From assembly GCA_965204235.1 (NCBI GenBank), contig OZ241979.1:2744907-2808906 (forward strand): a DNA stretch of 64,000 nucleotides, given 5' to 3'. The notes under the pieces were generated by a model, which saw only the letters and a list, made by a program, of their open reading frames with translations, had not been told where the DNA came from and did not search any database. A program made the position numbers and the translations under genes. How positions within the stretch are numbered: position 1 is the first letter of the stretch; every line of letters starts with the position of its first letter. The stretch is from an uncultured Candidatus Binatia bacterium. Its GTDB lineage: Bacteria; Desulfobacterota; Binatia; UBA9968; JAJDTQ01. This document shows, piece by piece, positions 1,015 to 13,670 of the stretch.

Positions 1015-1281
1015 GTGGCCCCGGACTCCTTCATCGTTCCCGTTACCGAGGAGGAGATCCGCCGGGAGCGCTCGAAGGCGCGGGAACTGCGGAACAGCCA
1101 GTGGTGGAAGAACCGGAAGAGCCGGGGACTGTGCGCTCATTGCGGCGGCCGGTTCTCCCCCGGGGACCTGACCATGGACCACCTGGTCCCCATCGTCCGC
1201 GGCGGCAAGAGCACCAGGGGCAACGTCGTTCCCAGTTGCCGGGAGTGCAACAGCGCCAAGCGGCACAGCCTGCCTTTCTGA
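1015..1281 (+). CDS. HNH endonuclease (small, stand-alone)
   Basis: 88 aa with CAHCGG...DHLVPIVRGG...N..PSCRECN, a classic HNH/Cys-box pattern. Confidence 0.8.
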   Translation: MAPDSFIVPVTEEEIRRERSKARELRNSQWWKNRKSRGLCAHCGGRFSPGDLTMDHLVPIVRGGKSTRGNVVPSCRECNSAKRHSLPF

Positions 1282-1287
1282 TCCCTG

Positions 1288-1590
1288 TCAACCCGCAGGT
1301 TTCCTCGATTCGTGCCTCTTCCAGTCGGGCACGTAGGCCGCCATCAATGCCTTGTAGAGCCTGCCGTGGTTGGGCACGCGCAGGTGCAGCAGCTCGTGGA
1401 CGATGACGAAGTCCTGGAAGCCCTCGTCCTGATCCTCCAGGTCCGCGGCCAGGGTCACGGTTCCCGACGTGGAGCAGGAGCCCCACTTCCGCGTCATCGG
1501 TTGCACCCGAACCCGCTGCGGGCGGACGTTCAACCGCCACTTCCAGTACTCGACGCGGCCGCGAAGGGCCTCGCGCCGGTGGTCACTCAT
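1288..1590 (-). CDS. M48/DUF45 (YgjP-like) zinc metallopeptidase, short form, coupled to hsdR
   Basis: WGSCS...VIVHELLHL motif. Start overlaps the hsdR stop by 8 nt. Confidence 0.75.
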
Positions 1591-4528: not shown

Positions 4529-4606
4529 GGCCCGATCAGGGCGTCGAGGATGTTGCCAGCATCCGGGCAAGGCCGGTTCGATACGAATGAGTCGGCGCGC
4601 TTGCTG

Positions 4607-4641
4607 ATAGCGCCCCCCATAGCGCCCCCATGGCGCCCCCC
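4607..4641. repeat. Three tandem 11-12 bp units ATRGCGCCCCC(C) (iteron-like), distal set
   Basis: atagcgcccccc / atagcgccccc / atggcgcccccc read directly, 79-113 nt upstream of the hsdR ATG. Confidence 0.8.
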
Positions 4642-4706
4642 GAGCGCCTTTGTTGCGTCCCTATAACCACTTGAAATGTCATGTGATTTTCTTCCTCGCA
4701 CATCTC

Positions 4707-4739
4707 ATGGCGCCCCCTATAGCGCCCCATAGCGCCCCC
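4707..4739. repeat. Three tandem units ATRGCGCCCC(C), second set, same orientation
   Basis: atggcgccccc t atagcgcccc atagcgccccc. Separated from the first set by a 65-bp AT-richer spacer. Confidence 0.8.
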
Positions 4740-4775
4740 ATGTGGGTCTCGTGCCTCCGAGCGTGACAACCCATA

Positions 4776-4843
4776 GGAGACCTCTGAACGATTGCCTCCG
4801 TTCGTCCTGAGCGTAGCGAAGCGAAGTCGAAGGACGCGCTTTG
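4776..4843 (+). repeat. MITE-like repeat copy 1 (left half only)
   Basis: ggagacctctgaacgattgcctccgttcgtcctgagcgtagcgaagcgaagtcgaaggacgcgcttt matches the family consensus. Right half missing. Confidence 0.8.
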
Positions 4844-5588
4844 GCACAGGGCGTTGGCCAGCGCTTCCCGCGGCGCGGCACAACGCGCCATCGCGCAACA
4901 GTCCGAGTCCGCGCAGGAGTTCCTGGGGGTCCATGCTTCCCGGCTCTGCCAGTCTGCCGCGCCGGATCGCCTCGGCAACCGTGCGGCGAATCTCGTCCGC
5001 GTCGAGGTCTTCGACCCGCCAGCCGGCTGCTGTCCGGTTCTCCCAGCGCCGTTCGCTGTGCATGCGCTCGAACAGCATCCGTCCGTACTCGTCGGACGAC
5101 AGGGCCACTGTGGCATTCCCGATCCGGCGGTAGGCGGCGCCGCGGTAGGTGTAGGGCTGCGTCGGCCCCCGGCTCACGATGATCGCGACGACCTCGCGGT
5201 CGCCCTTCACGCGCACCCGCTCGACCGCGGGAAACGCCGGCGGTTCGATCCTCCGGATCTCGGCGCTGACCTCTTCGATGGTTCTTTCCCCCACCTGCTG
5301 GCCTGTCACGTTCCCGTCCGGCGTCACGCCGAACAGCACGTGCCCGCCCCGCTGGTTGAGCATGGCGCAGACCGTTTGAGCCGCCTCGCGGCGCATGCCT
5401 GTGGTGGCCTTGAACTCCAGACTTTCGGACTCGCCGGAGGCGGCCAAGGTGGTGATCTGGTCAGAGGTCATGGAGTGCATCCGTAATCGGACTTGCCTCG
5501 TGCCGTTGGCTTGTTCCGCACGTCGGTTGTCCGTTCAAAACGCTTGACACAGGCTTCCGTCAGGGGATAAGGTAAACCACTTTCAAGT

Positions 5589-5647
5589 CCCTCCCTGACG
5601 ACAAGGGCCCAAGGGGCCCTCTCCGGCGACGGAGTAGTCAGGGAGGG
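5589..5647. other. Nested inverted repeat (11-bp outer stem, inner GGGCC/GGCCC hairpin)
   Basis: ccctccctgac (5589-5599) is the perfect reverse complement of gtcagggaggg (5637-5647). Lies between the SLOG-like stop and the AlbA_2 remnant start. Confidence 0.6.
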
Positions 5648-5738
5648 CATCCTCTCCTGCCTCTCTGCGAAGATTCTCACTTGCCAATCAGGAATTGGCC
5701 CGTCTCATCGGCCGGCTCAAGTCGTCTATGCATTGTTT

Positions 5739-6575
5739 CTATCCTTTCCGAACTGAGCTGCCGCGAGTTCCAGAATTGCGCAGCCGGCGAAGCCCTTGCA
5801 TGACCAAGGTGACGGCTTGATCGAGATGCGGGGTGCAGGCGAGTACCTGGTTCTCTTCCGTGGAAAGCCCATTGTTCAAATCGTTTTGCGTATAGCGTTT
5901 GAACTGCTTACGACCCGGCCAAGGTGGACGAGAGCCTGCCCAGGTATCCACAAGTCCAACGGTTTCTGCGATGTCACGGGTACAGCCGCCGAAGCCGCCG
6001 ATCAGAAAGAGCGGCTGACCGACCTCAAGCGACAGCAGGGCTTCTTCTGCGATGCCCGGCATATTCCCTTTATAGCCTTCTACCCGTCCGCCGAGCACGA
6101 TGCGGGCATCCGTCTCTCCCCGCATGGTCCTCCGCATCGCCGTCAGTCCCGGTCCCCATTCGTGCTCGTCTGGTTCATGTGACGGCAAGGTGTGGCGATC
6201 TTCCATTGACATCCACCGGCCGTCCTGTCCGATGAGGGCAAGTTGAGCGAATCCTTGGAGTTCAGCGGCGAGCGTGTCCAGGTCGGTAGCCTTCATACGG
6301 ACATGGACCGGCCATGCCAGGTAGTCAATCACCCTCGCGTCAGTATCCTCCTGCCGTCGATAGCGCATGACCAACTCGAACAGCAGTTCCGTAAAACCAC
6401 CGAGCCGCAGATCGCCGCCGTAGGCCAAGTTCGACCCCGAGGCGAGAAGATAGATCGCAAACTCCGCCACAGCCTCCCGCAAATGGCCTTCACTGAATCC
6501 GAGCACGGCCATATCAGGACTGTCGGACATGGAAATGGCGATGATTTTTGGCGGTTGGGCGTCGATTGCGCTCAT
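5739..6575 (-). CDS. SLOG/LOG-like Rossmann-fold protein (putative nucleotide-signal sensor), stand-alone
   Basis: 278 aa with glycine-rich motifs AYGGDLRLGG and LIGGFGGCTRDIAE reminiscent of the LOG/SLOG PGGxGTxxE. Its ATG is 4 nt from the stop of the TIR gene. Confidence 0.5.
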   Translation of the reverse strand: MSAIDAQPPKIIAISMSDSPDMAVLGFSEGHLREAVAEFAIYLLASGSNLAYGGDLRLGGFTELLFELVMRYRRQEDTDARVIDYLAWPVHVRMKATDLDTLAAELQGFAQLALIGQDGRWMSMEDRHTLPSHEPDEHEWGPGLTAMRRTMRGETDARIVLGGRVEGYKGNMPGIAEEALLSLEVGQPLFLIGGFGGCTRDIAETVGLVDTWAGSRPPWPGRKQFKRYTQNDLNNGLSTEENQVLACTPHLDQAVTLVMQGLRRLRNSGTRGSSVRKG

Positions 6576-6832
6576 TGCTCAATCCTCCATCAGCCAATCG
6601 GCCAAGGTGTACAGACGCACGCCGGGAACGATGTCGGCAAAGAGCCGTATCTCTTCCAAGCCCAATGGGGGACCGGGATAAACGAGAGTACGTTCGGCGG
6701 CGCCGGCATTATCCATCAAGTTCGAGAGCAAAATCAACTCCGGCGGTCGTGCCGTGAACATGACCTGCGGATGTGAGCCACGGAACCCTTCAATCCGCTG
6801 CCGCCAAAGGAAATCCTTGAACAATTCGTCAA

Positions 6833-8062
6833 GGAACCTCTGAACAATTCAGGAATTGAGATGGAGGCATTCCAGATGCAGTTGATGGGAACGTCATGAG
6901 TATCATTTGGCGTCGGAGGGCGGTGTAGAAACGAGGATCCGGGTGTCGATCGAGGGTTTGAGCACCCCTGGAAGCATGTTCCAGGGGTGCTTTCCCTGCA
7001 TTCTACGCAGTCGCACGCAATAATTCCCTCTTCGCCATCAGCATGTTGACCAAAGCACAAGTGATGAGCAAGTAATGCTCATTCTTCCACAGCCCCTTGT
7101 ACCTGAGCCGGGTGAACCCGAATCGCCTCTTCATCACCCCGAACACATGCTCCACCTTCGCTCGCACACGCGACTTGCTCCGGTTCCGCCTCCGATCCTC
7201 TTCCGTCAAAGGTCGATTCCTCTGTCCCTTCCGGTGGGTAAAGTCCTGAGCCCTCGGCGCCCGCTCCCGGATCACCTTGCCCTGTCCCCCATACGCCGAG
7301 TCTCCCCACACCCGCGTCTCCCGCCCGTGCAACAACTCCCCCAGCTTCTGCGAATCATGCACGTTCGCCGCCGTCGCCACCACCGAATGGATCTGCTTCG
7401 TCCGACTGTCCACCCCCACGTGCGCCTTCATCCCGAAATACCACTGATTCCCCTTCCGCGTCGAATGCATCTCCGGATCCCGCTGCCTCCCCTTGTTCTT
7501 CGTCGAGGCCGCCGCCTGCAGGATCGTCGCATCCACAATCGTTCCCGTCGATACCTTCAGCCCCTTCTCTTCCAGATGCCCATTCACCTTGCGAAACACT
7601 TCCTTCCCCAACTCATGGCGCTCCAACAAGTGCCGAAACTTGCAGATGGTCGTCTCATCCGGCACACGCTCCTCTCCCAAATCCACCCCCACGAACTCCC
7701 GCATGGCTCGCGAATCATACAGCGCTTCCTCCACCCCGGGGTCCGACAGGCTGAACCAGTGCTGCAAAAAATGAATCCGCAACATCCGCTCGATCCCCAC
7801 CGGGCGCCGTCCCGCTCCCGGAGGCTGCGGATAGTACGGCTCCACCGCCTCCACCAACTCCTCCCACGGGATCACCCCGTTCATCTCCTCCAGGAACTTC
7901 GCCTTCCGCGTCTGCCTGCCGTACTTCTCGAAATTCACCGCCCCGAACGTCCGCTGCTGCATTCCGATAGCCTCCCTCTCCCTGATATCCTCCGATTCTA
8001 CTCCTTGCCTTTTCTTTTCGCTACCATTATCCTCCCGCGGAGGGGAATAAATCAGAGGTTCC
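6833..8062 (-). mobile_element. IS5-family insertion sequence (1230 bp) with 4-bp target duplication TCAA
   Basis: Ends GGAACCTCTGA (6833-6843) and TCAGAGGTTCC (8052-8062) are inverted repeats. TCAA at 6829-6832 and 8063-8066. One DDE transposase ORF inside. Confidence 0.88.
7003..7962 (-). CDS. IS5-family DDE transposase
   Basis: 319 aa from MQQRTFGAVNFEKYG. Has the typical IS5/IS4 N-terminal region (RMLRIHFLQHWFSLSD) and DDE_Tnp_1 region (IVDATI...WGDSAY...VEHVFGVMK). Confidence 0.9.
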   Translation of the reverse strand: MQQRTFGAVNFEKYGRQTRKAKFLEEMNGVIPWEELVEAVEPYYPQPPGAGRRPVGIERMLRIHFLQHWFSLSDPGVEEALYDSRAMREFVGVDLGEERVPDETTICKFRHLLERHELGKEVFRKVNGHLEEKGLKVSTGTIVDATILQAAASTKNKGRQRDPEMHSTRKGNQWYFGMKAHVGVDSRTKQIHSVVATAANVHDSQKLGELLHGRETRVWGDSAYGGQGKVIRERAPRAQDFTHRKGQRNRPLTEEDRRRNRSKSRVRAKVEHVFGVMKRRFGFTRLRYKGLWKNEHYLLITCALVNMLMAKRELLRATA

Positions 8063-8978
8063 TCAAGAAGGAGTGAGGCGACCTGATCCATCCGGTCTCT
8101 GTTGTCGGGGTTCATGCGGATGCTCGGTACATTTCCGAGGTATGGGAAAGCCCGCTCGTCAACCGTTTGCAGGCAGTTGACTACCACCATCGGAACATTT
8201 CTGCGTTTCGCCTCTATCACTTCATGGCGGCACCACTCCCGAGAGGAGTAAGAGTCGGTATAGACGGTCACCATGGCGCCATCCTGAATGGAGTCGTCTA
8301 TGACGGAGGAGAAGGACAGCCCTGGCGGTATATCATGGACATCGAGAAAGCTCGATAACGCGCTGTTGTTGTGAAGCCAGTCACGGACGGCTCTGGCGAC
8401 TACATCTCCATGATCGTCGTGCTTGGAGTGGCTGAGGAAGACCTGGATGTTCTGCCGGTAGCGCTGAAGGTCGCCTCTATCGTCGGTATGTTGTCCCAGG
8501 CGATGTCTGAGCATCCGACTGAACTCATAAGTGAGGTCTCGGCAAAGCCGTTGTTCTCGTTCGAGATGGCTTCCCTTCCAGCGGTCCCAGCGTAGCGCCT
8601 GTATGTCAAGACCGATGTCGAGGCTTCCCGCTTCCAGCGCGACGGGAAACACGCGAGCGCCAAAGCCTTTCTCCTCGGCCTCTCTTGTGAGTTCTCTGAC
8701 GTACTGCGTCCACTCGGGGTCGTTCGCAAGCGCGTTGTCCAGCAGCACTACTGCAGCCGTGGTTTCGGCTTCGCTCCAGTCAACGGGCAGAGGGGTAGTG
8801 GAACCCGGGGCGTTGATGTTGCGAAAAAGGACCGTAACACCGGCTCCGCCAACAACGTTGCGATAGCGGTCGGTGCCGAAGTGGTGGCGAAGATAGGCGG
8901 CGATTCTCTCTCCATCAGCGTATCCGGGGTGCCAGACGACGTAGAGCGTGAAGGGAGGTCGGCTCATGATTTCCACGA

Positions 8979-9644
8979 TCAAGACCCTCTTGTACCGAAA
9001 CCGCCGGCTCCACCGAGCACCGACAAGTCAAGTTGACTCACCCGAGTCTCTCCTGTTATCAGCTTGTGCAGCAATGCCTTGGATAGTTCGTCCAGCAGCC
9101 CCCGTTTTTGATCGGTTATTTTCAGAGCCTCGCGTACCCTTCCCAATACCGTAACCATGGCCTTCTGCTCATCAATGACTGGGTGTGGCACTTCGAGCGC
9201 CGCCAGCCGGCTGCGCGACAGGTTCGGGATCGTGGTCTTGTTGCCCGCACCCTCGAAGATGCCAAGTTGCGTGAAGGCCGACTGCAGGAAGTACACGTAG
9301 AAGCGTGGCTCGACGTCTTTGGCGATGGGCCGCAGCCGATGCAGGTGGTTCTGGAACGCCATCGGTTCGATCTCCCCGTTCCAGATCGCCGCGCGCCCGA
9401 TCTCGCCGCCTTCACAGACGAGCAAGTCCCCCGATCGGAGTAACTTGGCGGGCAATTCATGCTCGGGAATCCACATTTCGTCCACGGACGACAGGTCGAT
9501 CTTGTCCCAGAGGACGTTCGACGTGCGCAGGAACGGGATTTTGTGAGCACCGCCGCGGGCGGCGGCGGACATGGTTTTGCCCGCGCCGATCTCGAACAAC
9601 TCCCCGAGTGGTCGCCATGTCCAGGAGGGATTCATGGCGTTCAT
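8979..9644 (-). CDS. hsdS: Type I R-M specificity subunit, half-size (single TRD)
   Basis: 221 aa with one target-recognition domain plus a conserved C-terminal helix ([17 protein letters not shown]). Overlaps the hsdM stop by 4 nt. Confidence 0.85.
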
Positions 9645-11494
9645 TGCAGGGGCTCCAGCATTTTTGTCAGCGCTTTGTCGATCTTCCGGGCTTCAGCGTC
9701 GAGGCGTTGCATTTCGGCAAGAATGTCCTTGATGGGCCGCAATGTCCCGGCCCCCGTCTGTCCCACCCACCGACTCGGACTCAGGTTGTAGTCGCCGTCC
9801 TCCGCCTGCTCCCGCGTGATGACGGCCACCTCGCCTTCGACCGGCTCCCCCTTCACGAAGGCCTCCGCCAGCGGACGGATGTCCTCTTCCGGGATGAAGT
9901 TCTTGGGTCGGCCCTTGCGCACGCGCCGGCTGGCGTTCAGCAGCACGATCCGGTCCTTTCGCGCTGCGGGCTTGCGCTTGGACAGCACCACGACCACGCC
10001 TGCGGCGCTGGTGTTGTAGAAGAGGTTGTCGGGCAGCAGGATCACGCCGTCGATCAGGTCGTGGTCCACGAACCACTTGCGGATGTTGCGTTCGCGGTCC
10101 TCGTGCTTGCTGCCCGAACCGCGCGTCACCGCGCCGGTGTCGAGCACCACCGCGGCCCGGCCGCGTTCGTTCAGGCAGGCGAGGGTGTGTTGGAGCCATG
10201 CCCAATCGCCCTTGCCGCTGGTGACGCCGCCGCGGGGGCGGAAGCGGTCGAACGGGTCGTTGGCGAACAGGTCGGGGCTGAACGGCTGGTTCCACATGGG
10301 GTTGGCGACCACCACGTCGTGCGCGGCGATGCGGCCCGCGGGGGTCTTGAACTTCGGGTTGATCATGGTGTCGCCGCGCTCGATTTCCACTTCCATGTCG
10401 TGGATGATGGCGTTCATGTGGGCGACCGCGTAGCTCTCGGCCTGCAACTCCTGGCCGTGCAGCTTGAGCGGCACGCGGCTGGTGGGGTCCATCTCCCGGG
10501 CCACGAGTTGGAGCTTGACCAGCAGCCCGGCCGAGCCGCAGGCGTAGTCGTGGCATTGCTCGCCGGGCCTCGGGCGCATGAGGTGCGCCATCAGGAAGCC
10601 GACCTCGGTGGGGGTGAAGAACTCCCCGGCGCTCTGGCCGGAACCTTCCGCGAACTTGCGCAGCAGGTATTCGTACGCGCGGCCCAGGAAGTCGGGCTGC
10701 ACGTCGGCAAGGCCGAGCCGGTAACGCGGGTCGGAGAAGGTCTCGACCACCGCGGCGAGCTTCGCCGGGTTGACGTCCCGCTCGCCGTTGCGCTCCGCGG
10801 CAAAGTCCACCAAGTCGATGACGCCCGCAAGCGAGGGGTTGTGCCGCGCCACCGCGCGGGTTGCCTTGGTCAGGTGTTCCCCGATGTCCCTTGGTCGGGT
10901 GCTGCGTCCTTGGCCGTCCAGAGGCCATTCATGGTCTGCACGACCGCTGATTACTCCCCATCGCGCTTCCGGGGGCAGGTAGAAACGCAGCACCTCATGG
11001 TCGCTCTCGGCGATCTCCTGCGCCACGTCCGGGTCGCCGTATTCTTCGGCCAGCCGCTTGATCTCGTCGTCGAAGACGTCCGACAAGCGCTTGAGGAAGA
11101 GGAGCGGCAACAGGTAGTCTTTGAATTTGGCCGCGTCCTTCTCCCCGCGGATGGAGCAGGCCGCGTCCCAGAGCATCTGCTCCATGGGCTTGGTGGAAGG
11201 ATCGGTCATCCGCCGCCGGCGAGACCGCCTCCGCGTCACCTGGGCCACGGCTTCGGCGGGAGCAGCCGTCGCCTCCACCCCGTCCACGGCCGCTTCCGCG
11301 GCGAGGGCGACGATGGCCTCTTGGGACGCCTTCTGCGGCGTGGCTGCTCCCCCCTCCCAGCGGTTTACGCTGGCGAAGGAGACTCCGAGCCTTTCCGCAA
11401 GCTGCTCCTGTGTGAGGTCGAGTTTGGCGCGGATGGCGCGCAAGGTGCTTGAAACGGCGCTTACTTCTGGCATATCTGTCATGTTTGCATACAT
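9641..11494 (-). CDS. hsdM: Type I R-M N6-adenine DNA methyltransferase with N-terminal XRE-type HTH
   Basis: HsdM_N and N6_Mtase regions ([18 protein letters not shown]). First ~60 aa are [23 protein letters not shown], an HTH_3-like motif. Confidence 0.9.
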
Positions 11495-11585
11495 AACATC
11501 TGTTCAGATGGTTTTCCAGCCCCTCCGAACGGCTCGGACTTCAGGGTAGGTGCCTACGGTAGTGGGATTATGGTATCTTGCCGGT

Positions 11586-12878
11586 ATGCAAAGACGCCGG
11601 TTGCCAACGGAGAGCGTGATGGATGACGCGGACCTGAGACGCCGCATCCGGCTCGGTGAGGACTCGATCCTGGAGTTCAAGGCTGTCGTCGTCTCCGGCG
11701 GTAGTGTCGCTGCGCCCGACCGGAATGCAATCGCGGATGAACTGGCTGCCCTGGCCAACAGCCGGGGAGGGACGTTGGTCCTCGGCGTGGGCGACAAGAC
11801 TCCCCGGATCCAAGGTATTCCACTTGACGGTCTCGACGCGGTAGAAGGCTGGGTCCGCGAGATCTGCAACGACTCGGTGAAGCCTCCGTTGGATGCCGAT
11901 ATCCTCAAGATCGAGTTGGAGAATGCGGAGGGTCAACTCGTCCCCTTATTGCGGGTGGACGTTGGGCGCGGCTTGTTCGTTCACCGGAGCCCGGGCGGGT
12001 ACTTTCGCAGGGTCGGCAGTTCCAAGCGCGAGATGACCCCGGAGGTCCTTGCCCGGCTGTTCCAGGAACGCAGCCAGACCCGGCTCATCCGTTTCGACGA
12101 GTCCGCGGTGCCCGGCGCGGCGCCATCCGATCTGCACTACTCGCTGACGCAACGTTTCCTGCAGGGAGACGCCGTCGATGCTCCTTCCACGTCGTCGCAC
12201 GACGACGCCCTCGAAGCGTCCGAAGACATGTTGCGCAAGCTCCGCATCGTCACCGAGGATCTGGACGGAAACGCTCGCTTGACGCTCGCCGGTGTCCTCC
12301 TCTGCACGCCGGAACCGCAACGGTGGCTCCCTCATGCCTACATACAGGCCGTCAGCTACGCCGGCGAGCGCACCGACGCCGACTACCAGAGCGATGCGCG
12401 CGACATCGGGGGGCCGCTCGACGAACAGGTTGCGGAAGCGCTGCACTTCGTGCGGCGGAACATGCTGGTGCGAGCAACCAAGGCCCCCGCCCGGTCGGAC
12501 CGCCCTCAGTTCAGCGAGCGGGCCGTGTTCGAGGCCATCGTGAACGCAGTGGCTCACCGCGACTATTCCATGGCCGGCGCCCGCGTGCGCCTGCACCTGT
12601 TCGGCGACAGGCTGGAACTCTACGTACCCGGCGCGCTGGTCAACACGCTGACCCCGGACAGCCTGCACCTGCGGCAGGCGAACCGGAACGAGCTCATCGT
12701 ATCCCTGTTGTCGCGTTGCAAGGCGCCAACGGGCGTCGGGCGCACACGGCTGATGGACCGGCGCGGGGATGGAGTGCCGATCATTCGTCGGGAATGCCGA
12801 GAGTTGTCGGGACGGCTGCCCGATTACGGCCTCATCGACGACAGCGAACTGCGCCTGGTGATGTGGACCGCGGCGTAG
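11586..12878 (+). CDS. AlbA_2 + HATPase_c_4-type putative transcriptional regulator (RecG-like DNA-binding protein)
   Basis: LEFK...GGTLVLGV AlbA_2 N-terminus and AIVNAVAHRDY ATPase-like C-terminal module. Start ambiguous (11550/11586/11619). Confidence 0.75.
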   Translation: MQRRRLPTESVMDDADLRRRIRLGEDSILEFKAVVVSGGSVAAPDRNAIADELAALANSRGGTLVLGVGDKTPRIQGIPLDGLDAVEGWVREICNDSVKPPLDADILKIELENAEGQLVPLLRVDVGRGLFVHRSPGGYFRRVGSSKREMTPEVLARLFQERSQTRLIRFDESAVPGAAPSDLHYSLTQRFLQGDAVDAPSTSSHDDALEASEDMLRKLRIVTEDLDGNARLTLAGVLLCTPEPQRWLPHAYIQAVSYAGERTDADYQSDARDIGGPLDEQVAEALHFVRRNMLVRATKAPARSDRPQFSERAVFEAIVNAVAHRDYSMAGARVRLHLFGDRLELYVPGALVNTLTPDSLHLRQANRNELIVSLLSRCKAPTGVGRTRLMDRRGDGVPIIRRECRELSGRLPDYGLIDDSELRLVMWTAA

Positions 12879-12887
12879 GGAGCGGAC

Positions 12888-13670
12888 TTGAGCGATACAA
12901 AGCAGATCGTCTGCCTTGCGAACTCCCGGAAGCTATCGGGCCGGTACATCGCGGGCCGAGAATGGAGCGAAGAACGTGGAGCAGGGAACTGGATTCGGCC
13001 GGTGAGCGACAGGGAAGGCGGGGAAGTGTCCGAGTACGAGCGCCAGTACGAGGACGGCAGCGACCCCCAGGTGCTCGACATCATCAGCATCCCGGTTATC
13101 GAGCCGCAGCCCAAGGACTGGCAAACGGAGAACTGGTTGCTGGACCCCGAGTTCTACTGGCGAAAGGAGGGAAGGTACTCGTGGTTCGACCTTGCCGATC
13201 TCCTGGATCCCGTTGCGCCGCTTTGGATCGACGGGTACAACACCTCCAATGGGCGGCATGACAAGATACCGTTGGATTTTGTGGATACGCTCCTTCAGCG
13301 ACCTGAAGACGGCTTGGTTCGCGGACGGCACGACAAGGTACCGCTGGATTCGTTGGAGTCGGTTTCCGGTTCGCTGCGCCTCATCCGTGTCGAGCGGCTC
13401 GAATTCTCCGTGTTCAAGCCCGGCGAGGCATTCGGCAACGCCAAGCGGCGCGTGCAGGGGCGGTTCTCCTACGCCGGCAAGGACTATGCGCTCTGGGTGA
13501 CCGATCCCTTGTACGAACGGCAGTACTTGGCGAAGCTGGACGGCGTTTACGAGATCGGCGAATGCTACTTGACCGTCAGTCTCGGAGAACCGTACCGAGA
13601 CGCCTGCTATAAGCTCATTGCCGCGATCATCGAGTGCGACCCGCGGCAGCGGCGCGAGCGACGCAGATGA
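12888..13670 (+). CDS. Hypothetical protein (conserved-looking N-terminus IVCLANSRKLSGRYIAG)
   Basis: 260-aa ORF with a TTG start preceded by GGGAG. Coding-like composition and an internal GRHDK(I/V)PLD duplication. No family recognised. Confidence 0.55.
   Translation: MSDTKQIVCLANSRKLSGRYIAGREWSEERGAGNWIRPVSDREGGEVSEYERQYEDGSDPQVLDIISIPVIEPQPKDWQTENWLLDPEFYWRKEGRYSWFDLADLLDPVAPLWIDGYNTSNGRHDKIPLDFVDTLLQRPEDGLVRGRHDKVPLDSLESVSGSLRLIRVERLEFSVFKPGEAFGNAKRRVQGRFSYAGKDYALWVTDPLYERQYLAKLDGVYEIGECYLTVSLGEPYRDACYKLIAAIIECDPRQRRERRR

Follow-up and report, generated by a model that had tools for sequence, protein, structure and literature searches.

A split TIR-SLOG gene pair of Thoeris type, carried as cargo in a Type I restriction-modification operon and interrupted by an IS5-family element

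In a 64-kb stretch of the genome of an uncultured Candidatus Binatia bacterium (GenBank assembly GCA_965204235.1, contig OZ241979.1, positions 2,744,907 to 2,808,906; the whole stretch is called the window below, and positions are counted within it), a Type I restriction-modification (R-M) operon carries a gene for a 384-aa protein with a TIR domain (TIR384) and, next to it, a gene for a 278-aa stand-alone SLOG protein. An earlier note, made from the DNA letters alone, had described the two as a Thoeris-like pair embedded in the operon and silenced by an insertion sequence (IS). The gene order that it gave for the minus strand is confirmed by the positions of the open reading frames (ORFs) and by Pfam: hsdM, hsdS, the TIR gene, the 278-aa gene, an AlbA_2 remnant, hsdR and a gene for a YgjP-like peptidase. 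The TIR gene is broken in two. Its 5' part (8063-8967, minus strand) comprises codons 1-301 plus 2 nt and encodes an N-terminal alpha/beta domain and the TIR domain; there follows an IS5-family element of 1230 bp (6833-8062, minus strand; transposase ORF 7003-7962, minus strand); and the 3' part (6579-6832, minus strand) runs from the rest of codon 302 to the stop, encoding the end of helix alphaE and a small C-terminal alpha/beta domain. The SLOG gene (5739-6575, minus strand) is intact. The ATG of the TIR gene (8967) lies 11 nt past the hsdS stop codon (8979-8981), and the ATG of the SLOG gene (6575) lies 3 nt beyond the TIR stop (6579-6581); the start and stop positions given earlier stand, and the gaps of 12 and 4 nt do not. 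We conclude that the pair represents a system of known kind in split form, which the R-M operon carries as cargo and which is inactive in the window.

The 278-aa protein belongs to the SLOG superfamily. It matches Pfam LD_cluster2 (PF18163) with an E value of 2.2e-73 (247.5 bits, against a cut-off of 25.3), and its AlphaFold2 (AF2) model, with a predicted local distance difference test (pLDDT) score of 86.5, consists of one SLOG fold followed by C-terminal helices. In a Foldseek search of the PDB, the best matches are the SLOG domains of ThsA (7uxs, 8btp and 6lhx; E 6e-5 to 2e-4), and the top one, 7uxs, is the SLOG domain of Bacillus cereus ThsA (BcThsA) with bound 3' cyclic ADP-ribose (3'cADPR). 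LOG phosphoribohydrolases form the second group (E ~1e-3), and TRPM N-terminal domains are also among the matches. The earlier note had called for these profile searches and this structure prediction, and had staked its idea on a SLOG fold, as opposed to a non-SLOG fold such as that of an ordinary LOG enzyme; both approaches gave SLOG, with ThsA ahead of the LOG enzymes. The SLOG clusters are said to have been defined by Burroughs and coworkers in Nucleic Acids Research (NAR) in 2015.

Pfam, PADLOC and NCBIfam show no other domain in the SLOG protein, with SIR2, Macro and nuclease domains not detected, and the model has no long hydrophobic helix, so the partner does lack the effector domains and the transmembrane segment that the earlier note had reported missing. 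In a Thoeris effector, a signal-binding domain is joined to a toxic effector domain; the 278-aa protein has the sensor domain without a toxic one. For the latter the only candidate is found next door, in the TIR domain of TIR384, which occurs fused to SLOG in other phyla. Relative to the ortholog in L001, a metagenomic scaffold with an IS-free version of the operon (L numbers denote related loci throughout), the SLOG gene has a ratio of nonsynonymous to synonymous substitution rates (dN/dS) of 0.23.

Could the SLOG protein be an enzyme instead of a sensor? As a LOG-type N-glycosidase acting on nucleotides, it might be a toxic effector that works by depletion, or it might process the product of the TIR protein. 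The motifs AYGGDLRLGG and LIGGFGGCTRDIAE, quoted in the earlier note, are both present; YGGDLR, GG-R...MPG-AEE and GGFGGC are invariant among the SLOG homologs, and these glycine-rich loops, together with PGxxEE, resemble the LOG motifs GGGxxG and PGGxGTxxE. LOG phosphoribohydrolases are also the second structural group, and Aravind's group has predicted that some SLOG families process, and do not merely sense, ADP-ribose (ADPR) derivatives (PMC9503650). However, the Pfam scan returns no LOG-type family, PGGxGTxxE is kept only in part, as MPGIAEE, and a PDB sequence search with the SLOG profile finds no match, with no solved LOG among its results. The ligand-binding SLOG domain of ThsA is, in addition, the better structural match. 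The conserved Glu does not separate the two possibilities, because ThsA retains the Glu of the LOG-like motif as a ligand contact. Altogether, LOG-type catalysis seems improbable to us.

In the intact 384-aa protein, Pfam places TIR_2 at residues 176-295 (E 3e-13; 50.7 bits against a cut-off of 28), and the motifs quoted in the earlier note are all there, with FTLYVVWHPGYADG at residue 6, VFLSHSKHDD at 176 and YSSREWCRHEV at 240. The WCxxE motif contains Glu249 (codon 8221-8223), which is conserved without exception in 73 homologs and can be aligned with the TIR of plant Roq1. The protein is thus a TIR-domain protein with a catalytic glutamate, as expected in Thoeris, and the TIR domain of its intact form is predicted to be catalytically competent. 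With a catalytic-Glu TIR on one side and a ThsA-like SLOG on the other, the Thoeris-like nature of the pair is supported.

The AF2 model further shows a conserved alpha/beta N-domain at residues ~5-170 and a small alpha/beta domain in the last ~60 residues. The protein had been read as a tandem TIR; one clear TIR and a conserved upstream alpha/beta domain are indeed present, but a second TIR is unproven. When the N-domain was compared with the TIR domain by hhalign, the probability was 0.4%, in a test of such low power that the true TIR domain reached only 4.7% against ThsB-type TIRs; the N-domain against ThsB-type TIRs, and the C-terminal domain against either the TIR domain or ThsB-type TIRs, gave no signal in the same low-power test. 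One of 16 N-domains gave a weak TIR_2 match (E 0.012). A PDB sequence search with the N-domain profile found no match, and Foldseek with the whole TIR-protein model found in the PDB only generic two-domain alpha/beta proteins (SIS domains) with a template modelling (TM) score of ~0.2. Searching 1.84 billion representatives with the N-domain profile yielded 668 relatives, and in all ten relatives of atypical length that were scanned with Pfam, the N-domain sits directly N-terminal of TIR_2. The N-terminal 170 residues are possibly a degenerate TIR-like domain. PADLOC gives the TIR protein only a weak match, to ThsB.

The element that splits the TIR gene belongs to the IS5 family, as judged from its IS5-type DDE transposase, terminal inverted repeats and short target duplication. 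Its ends are inverted (GGAACCTCTG.../...CAGAGGTTCC), with 19-nt arms that are 84% complementary and perfectly so over the outermost 10 nt, and they are flanked by a perfect 4-bp duplication, TTGA (8063-8066 and 6829-6832). The transposase carries the Pfam domains DUF772 and DDE_Tnp_1 and scores 352 bits with the NCBIfam model transpos_IS5_4 (cut-off 140). Excision of the IS with one copy of the duplication gives a 384-aa ORF in which the 3' part is in frame with the 5' part. The reconstructed junction peptide, ASLLLDELFKDFLW, is the same as in the intact TIR ortholog of L001, where the IS is absent; the proteins of that operon are 96-99% identical to those of the window, with 99% for the TIR ortholog. 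The inactivation by an IS that the earlier note proposed is therefore borne out.

The insertion point is codon 302, which lies in helix alphaE of the AF2 model just past the Pfam TIR envelope, and the small C-terminal domain is therefore cut off. Compared with L001, the reconstructed gene has 6 differences in 1155 nt and no lesion besides the IS. Since no second copy of the IS lies in the window either, the insertion looks like a recent event. As far as the sequence tells, the copy in the window cannot work, because the IS removes the C-terminal domain, no ThsB-type gene lies in the 64 kb and the neighbouring AlbA_2 gene is a pseudogene.

Two further observations concern this part of the operon. 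An ORF of 659 aa (7003-8982, minus strand) is chimeric, with TIR residues 1-301, a linker and the IS5 transposase, and is stop-free across the IS end; it is probably fortuitous, though it could let translation of the host gene run on into the transposase. In addition, the rate of synonymous substitution (dS) relative to L001 is 0.011-0.025 over hsdS and the TIR segment (8063-9644) and 0.07-0.09 for hsdM, the SLOG gene and hsdR, which hints at a recent recombination patch spanning hsdS and the TIR gene.

We surveyed the pair elsewhere with a SLOG-anchored scan of species-representative genomes (80 loci) and a TIR-anchored scan of 80 metagenome loci. Directly upstream of SLOG in the genome loci, a full-length TIR384 homolog is found 61 times, a damaged one (truncated, frameshifted or split by an insertion) 12 times, and none 7 times. 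In the metagenome set, the SLOG gene is directly 3' of the TIR gene in every locus with at least 300 nt downstream (76/76). Intact orthologous pairs, which the earlier note asked to be sought, are therefore plentiful, L001 among them, and the outcome that would have told against its idea, two genes that never occur together elsewhere, is not what we see. The estimated median distance from the TIR stop to the SLOG start is -4 nt, with overlapping stop and start codons being usual. Pairwise identities of the two proteins correlate (r = 0.75, 131 loci) and have similar means, 53% for TIR384 and 54% for SLOG. By these measures the pairing is obligate, and the genes are translationally coupled.

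The two genes also occur as one. Single TIR-SLOG proteins of ~690 aa are present in Bacillota, cyanobacteria and Aureispira, and the fused form is encoded on plasmids of Priestia megaterium, Gloeothece PCC 7424 and Aureispira. The proteins of Priestia (686 aa) and Gloeothece (689 aa) are colinear with the pair, matching TIR384 (E ~6e-53) and then SLOG (E 1e-42 to 9e-50), and Pfam finds in both of them TIR_2 and a full-length LD_cluster2. Fused forms of 656-720 aa were also found among the relatives of the N-domain. In these fused relatives, the SLOG domain is C-terminal, after the TIR part, and the genes are flanked by ThsB_TIR or TIR_2 genes; the SLOG part of one of them has a weak match to STALD, a Pfam family named for Sir2-/TIR-associating SLOG. 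Judging from this colinearity, the two genes are two halves of one functional unit. In rare architectures, an nSTAND1 NTPase, a cyclic nucleotide monophosphate (cNMP)-binding domain or a calcineurin-like phosphoesterase (metallophosphatase) precedes the N-domain-TIR unit; proteins with such N-terminal additions are P0380 (L171 1459-5199), P0325 (L170 360-2036) and P0359. The cNMP-binding domain of P0325 was considered as a substitute for SLOG and rejected, as a separate SLOG gene lies 4 nt downstream.

The family is large: at 90% identity, each of the two proteins falls into ~1,500 clusters. Hosts of the SLOG loci include Binatia, Acidobacteriota, Chloroflexota, Gemmatimonadota, Latescibacterota, Proteobacteria (including isolates of Pseudomonas, Burkholderia and Rhizobium) and Nitrosopumilaceae archaea. 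GenBank phages hold no homolog, the pair is on 1 of 2.9 million viral contigs, and Foldseek against BFVD gives only weak, generic SLOG-fold matches. Thus, the module is not typically phage-borne. It has been damaged independently in L024, L026, L030, L034, L046, L049, L059, L075, L077, L078 and L079, where the TIR gene has suffered truncation, frameshifts or insertions of ~2 kb that split it, or, in L079, the SLOG gene is frameshifted; in L059, transposase-like ORFs lie immediately upstream of SLOG. Such repeated decay would fit a costly module, possibly of the abortive-infection type.

The neighbours of the pair offer another view of its function. At 74 non-R-M loci, two ORFs on each flank of the pair were surveyed with a greedy ORF set and Pfam scans. 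PF08937 (ThsB_TIR) leads on both flanks, with 32 of 147 ORFs downstream and 29 of 145 upstream, and TIR_2 comes second. An extra small TIR gene (~160-220 aa) lies within 2.5 kb at 63 of 86 well-flanked non-R-M loci (~73%) and at 10 of 13 R-M-embedded loci; at 51 of the 86 non-R-M loci, it lies right next to the pair on the same strand. The conjugative Klebsiella pneumoniae plasmid pKpnB199 carries ThsB_TIR (204 aa), a 397-aa TIR protein (TIR397) and a 270-aa SLOG protein (SLOG270) between IS elements. Neither the 64-kb window nor L001 contains a small TIR ORF, and so the operon, unlike that of a typical Thoeris system, has no ThsB. A trio of a small TIR gene, an Nmad2-like gene and a MazG_C gene recurs near the pair (L020, L047, L048, L053, L058, L061, L063, L066 and L078) and is probably a separate nucleotide-modification or defence system sharing the island.

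We favour, with a probability of roughly 55%, the reading that the pair is a split effector, in which the SLOG protein would sense a signal and TIR384 would consume nicotinamide adenine dinucleotide (NAD+). The small ThsB-type TIRs that flank the pair would detect infection and produce an ADP-ribose-derived signal, which the SLOG subunit would capture. Signal binding would then activate the NAD+-cleaving TIR domain of the 384-aa partner, probably via oligomerisation, and the resulting NAD+ cleavage would abort the infection. The pair is taken as the effector half because a fused single form of ~690 aa exists elsewhere and separate ThsB TIR genes accompany ~73% of its relatives, and SLOG as the sensor because its top structural matches are ThsA SLOG domains, with 3'cADPR bound in the best of them, and because of the weak STALD match in the fused SLOG. 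The order of domains points the same way, since the fused form has the enzyme domain first and SLOG at the C terminus, as in ThsA, and its make-up matches that of the type IX effector annotated "TIR and SLOG", described below. The roles assigned in the earlier note, a TIR protein that makes the signal and a SLOG sensor without an effector, are probably reversed, given the fusions and the ThsB neighbours.

Several findings weigh against this. LOG-like glycine and Glu motifs (YGGDLR, PGIAEE and GGFGGC) persist in the SLOG protein, and LOG enzymes are its next-best structural matches. No extra TIR gene lies within 2.5 kb at 23 of the 86 well-flanked non-R-M loci, nor in the window or L001; at such loci either the 384-aa protein can also generate the signal, or ThsB genes act in trans. 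Finally, the scores of the family with the models of type III Thoeris, described below, are far below the equivalog cut-offs (220 bits for ThcB4 and 110 for ThcA), and they do not make it a member of that type.

The loci without a further TIR gene bear on a different division of labour, in which TIR384 is a ThsB-like sensor and signal generator and SLOG an effector-less receptor, acting as a buffer or sponge, as a threshold-setter or as a regulator of something encoded elsewhere, so that the pair is complete. The pair is the only invariant part of the system; ~27% of the well-flanked loci lack another TIR gene in the vicinity, as do the window and L001. The additional N-terminal and C-terminal domains of TIR384 could act as sensors, the weak PADLOC match of this protein is to ThsB, and type III Thoeris likewise uses a small stand-alone SLOG protein. 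However, the phage-sensing parts of defence proteins are usually more variable, and here each of the three domains in TIR384 is conserved to the same degree as SLOG (mean identities of 53% and 54%). Fusing a generator with its own receptor makes little sense for a diffusible signal, and the fused form fits the sensor-effector layout of ThsA instead. A generator role for TIR384 would also leave the frequent ThsB_TIR neighbours unexplained and supply no killing or arresting activity. We consider this arrangement possible but rather unlikely.

TIR384 and SLOG could also form an autonomous two-protein system of Thoeris type that needs no ThsB, with SLOG closing a self-amplifying loop on that very enzyme and the whole serving as a back-up layer for Type I restriction; we think this unlikely. 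It would have the conserved N-domain, itself possibly degenerate TIR-like, and the active TIR domain start and execute the response between them, a step for which we would give no better odds. That the placement between hsdS and hsdR, in a cassette that crosses phyla, reflects a functional back-up of restriction is to be doubted to the same degree.

The setting of the pair is a complete Type I R-M locus, with the signature domains of HsdM, HsdS and HsdR all detected by Pfam. The hsdM gene (9641-11494, minus strand) encodes 617 aa with an N-terminal helix-turn-helix (HTH) domain (N6_Mtase 7e-73, HsdM_N 2e-23 and HTH_3) and is 97% identical to its L001 ortholog. The hsdS gene (8979-9644, minus strand) encodes a half-size specificity subunit of 221 aa with one target-recognition domain (Methylase_S 1.6e-15); L001 has the same 221-aa form, and L004 has instead a 432-aa HsdS. 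The restriction subunit gene hsdR (1583-4528/4570, minus strand) matches HSDR_N, ResIII, SWI2_SNF2 and T1R_D3-like. Beyond it is a short gene (1288-1590, minus strand) for a YgjP-like (formerly DUF45) metallopeptidase, which matches only the C-terminal half of the YgjP-like profile (3e-24); it is downstream of hsdR in related cassettes too and travels with the R-M cassette. Just past it, on the opposite strand, is an 88-aa HNH-type ORF (1015-1281, plus strand), whose L001 counterpart matches Pfam HNH and HNH_5.

Divergent from hsdM are two defence-type genes, one for an intact 442-aa protein with AlbA_2 and HATPase_c_4 (11550-12878, plus strand) and one with a strong match to the PADLOC candidate PDC-M45A (12888-13670, plus strand; E 3e-91). 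Thus, the R-M operon sits in a small defence island.

The embedding in a Type I operon that the earlier note described is real, with hsd domains around the pair, and it recurs across phyla. Among the 80 genome loci, 16 have SLOG within or beside a homologous hsdM-hsdS-...-hsdR-YgjP cassette; the TIR gene accompanies it in 12 of these and is missing from the other 4. The HsdM of this cassette is 69-86% identical across several phyla, and therefore the cassette and its cargo move horizontally. The cargo stretch (~5500-9500) has a G+C content of 0.55-0.61, compared with 0.64-0.72 for hsdM and hsdR, which fits cargo of foreign origin. R-M genes are near only 3 of the 80 TIR-anchored metagenome loci and 14 of 138 pair loci overall, and so the embedding is not required. 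Nor is the content of the slot constant: L010 has ThsB and AlbA_2 there, L004 has an AIPR gene but no TIR gene, and L001 has AlbA_2 alone. Cassettes close to that of the window in which SLOG occurs without TIR384 are found in L004 (8691-12602), L051, L060 and L081; in L004, SLOG directly follows the 432-aa HsdS and is itself followed by the AIPR protein, and L060 has two SLOG genes in tandem.

These data also speak to the idea that the pair cooperates with the surrounding R-M system, for example by sensing failed or ongoing restriction or by regulating HsdR. The presence of SLOG in or beside the cassette at 16 of 80 genome loci, the similarity of the cassette across phyla and a TIR gene that begins 11 nt past hsdS are what such cooperation would lead one to expect. 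However, most loci have no R-M genes nearby, the slot is variable and takes AIPR, AlbA_2 or ThsB elsewhere, and the cargo differs from hsdM and hsdR in G+C content. We regard cooperation as very unlikely.

Further cargo lies between the SLOG gene and hsdR. The AlbA_2 (Schlafen-like) gene (4536-5480, minus strand; Pfam SLFN_AlbA_2 6.6e-20) has a frameshifting deletion of 245 bp relative to the 345-aa gene of L001 (L001 11495-11739) and is a pseudogene, and so the remnant seen by the earlier note is one indeed. At the deletion junction, near 4868-4876, 9 bp are common to both alignment blocks, a sign that the deletion may have arisen between short direct repeats. A 214-bp insert (5496-5709) that separates the SLOG gene from AlbA_2 is specific to the window and missing in L001. 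Pieces of it, 60-110 bp long, recur intergenically in L005, L014, L016, L047 and L051, some of them just upstream of hsdM or hsdR; it matches no Rfam family and could be a small mobile or regulatory repeat. Another repeat, of ~46-62 nt, lies upstream of hsdR (4782-4842); inverted copies of it, 93-100% identical, are found in L001 (6174-6235 and 4038-4083), one ahead of hsdM and the other at a third intergenic site. Rfam, promoter and terminator scans gave nothing above background.

Metabolic LOG enzymes belong to the SLOG superfamily, and one might ask whether the pair has no defence role at all and serves housekeeping NAD or cytokinin-like nucleotide metabolism. Its neighbours are ThsB-type TIRs, R-M systems, AIPR, MazG_C and Nmad2 genes and IS elements; its distribution over bacterial phyla and archaea is patchy; and it is carried on plasmids and decays repeatedly. 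All of this argues for defence, and a housekeeping role is hard to credit.

How does the pair compare with known systems? In type I Thoeris, the SLOG domain of ThsA (SIR2-SLOG) binds the signal and activates the SIR2 domain. The 278-aa protein finds its best structural match in this SLOG domain, but here there is no SIR2, and the enzymatic part is a TIR domain encoded by another gene. Pfam finds no SIR2 or STALD match in either window protein, and PADLOC finds no ThsA. LOG cytokinin-riboside-5'-monophosphate phosphoribohydrolases share the SLOG superfamily fold and similar glycine-rich loops with the 278-aa protein; in contrast to ThsA SLOG, they are the weaker structural match, they give no Pfam or PDB sequence match, and the gene context here is defensive. 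Defence cargo within a Type I R-M operon is exemplified by PrrC, an anticodon nuclease encoded in the EcoprrI hsd locus. The likeness lies in unrelated genes of the abortive-infection type that sit between hsd genes and move with the cassette, and the slot holds AlbA_2, AIPR or ThsB in relatives; the cargo here differs in being a TIR/SLOG nucleotide-signalling module.

Type IX Thoeris of Bacillus cereus VD021 comes close to the fused form. It consists of ThsB and ThsJ, an effector annotated "TIR and SLOG", and has been shown to defend; its ThsB makes 3'cADPR, yet 3'cADPR did not trigger toxicity (bioRxiv 10.64898/2025.12.03.692087). Its effector joins TIR and SLOG and is partnered with separate ThsB TIRs, with ThsJ (IMG 2538300522) compared by annotation only; likewise, homologs of the window pair exist as ~690-aa TIR-SLOG polypeptides flanked by ThsB_TIR or TIR_2 genes. 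In contrast to the single polypeptide of type IX, the window has two translationally coupled genes 3 nt apart, and it has no ThsB. NCBIfam r20 gives no type IX match, and a plasmid search with the type IX ThsB sequence found Macro and SIR2 proteins as neighbours, with no TIR-SLOG.

Type III Thoeris offers the other precedent. In Pseudomonas aeruginosa L0872 it is made up of ThcA and ThcB1-4 (van den Berg et al. 2024, as cited in bioRxiv 10.64898/2025.12.03.692087), and it thereby combines several TIR proteins with a SLOG protein, in an uncharacterised mode of signalling. The NCBIfam model of ThcA (NF058525) is only 184 positions long, implying a small SLOG protein without an extra effector domain. 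That of ThcB4 (NF058526), with 375 positions, is near 384 aa in length, and its match falls on the TIR domain, which is similarly placed along the protein. Small ThsB_TIR-type genes beside the pair in most relatives add to the likeness. Of the curated NCBIfam families of Thoeris type, members of the family match these two alone, weakly but consistently, with 36-43 bits for ThcB4 (40.2 for the window TIR protein) and 14-23 bits for ThcA (14.5-23.2 in relatives); the window SLOG protein has no ThcA match in NCBIfam. Differences are that SLOG here has 278 aa and belongs to Pfam LD_cluster2, and that the window lacks ThcB1-3-like genes. An effector-less SLOG partner nevertheless has a validated precedent, because type III pairs TIRs with a small SLOG protein. 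By analogy, ThcB4 and ThcA may be the corresponding effector pair of type III, which, if the split-effector reading is right, could be read as that pair with ThcB1-3 as its sensors.

For the window itself the practical meaning is small, with an IS-inactivated copy, no ThsB genes and a pseudogene next door. If the split-effector reading is right, however, a large family would be identified as a Thoeris-type effector divided into TIR and SLOG subunits, spanning many bacterial phyla, Nitrosopumilaceae archaea and plasmids, including a conjugative plasmid of K. pneumoniae. Its natural fused and split forms would be a ready system for studying the activation of a TIR NADase by a SLOG sensor, and the locus would document a Type I R-M cassette with interchangeable defence cargo across phyla. 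PADLOC 2.0 and NCBIfam r20 do not recognise the TIR384-SLOG family, and PADLOC returns nothing for the SLOG protein. Yirmiya et al. list 29 putative Thoeris types. The earlier note called the architecture atypical, and the split into a TIR and a SLOG protein is indeed a variant, but one with precedents in ThcA of type III and ThsJ of type IX. With these two types known and a family of this size, the TIR-SLOG architecture is not unprecedented.

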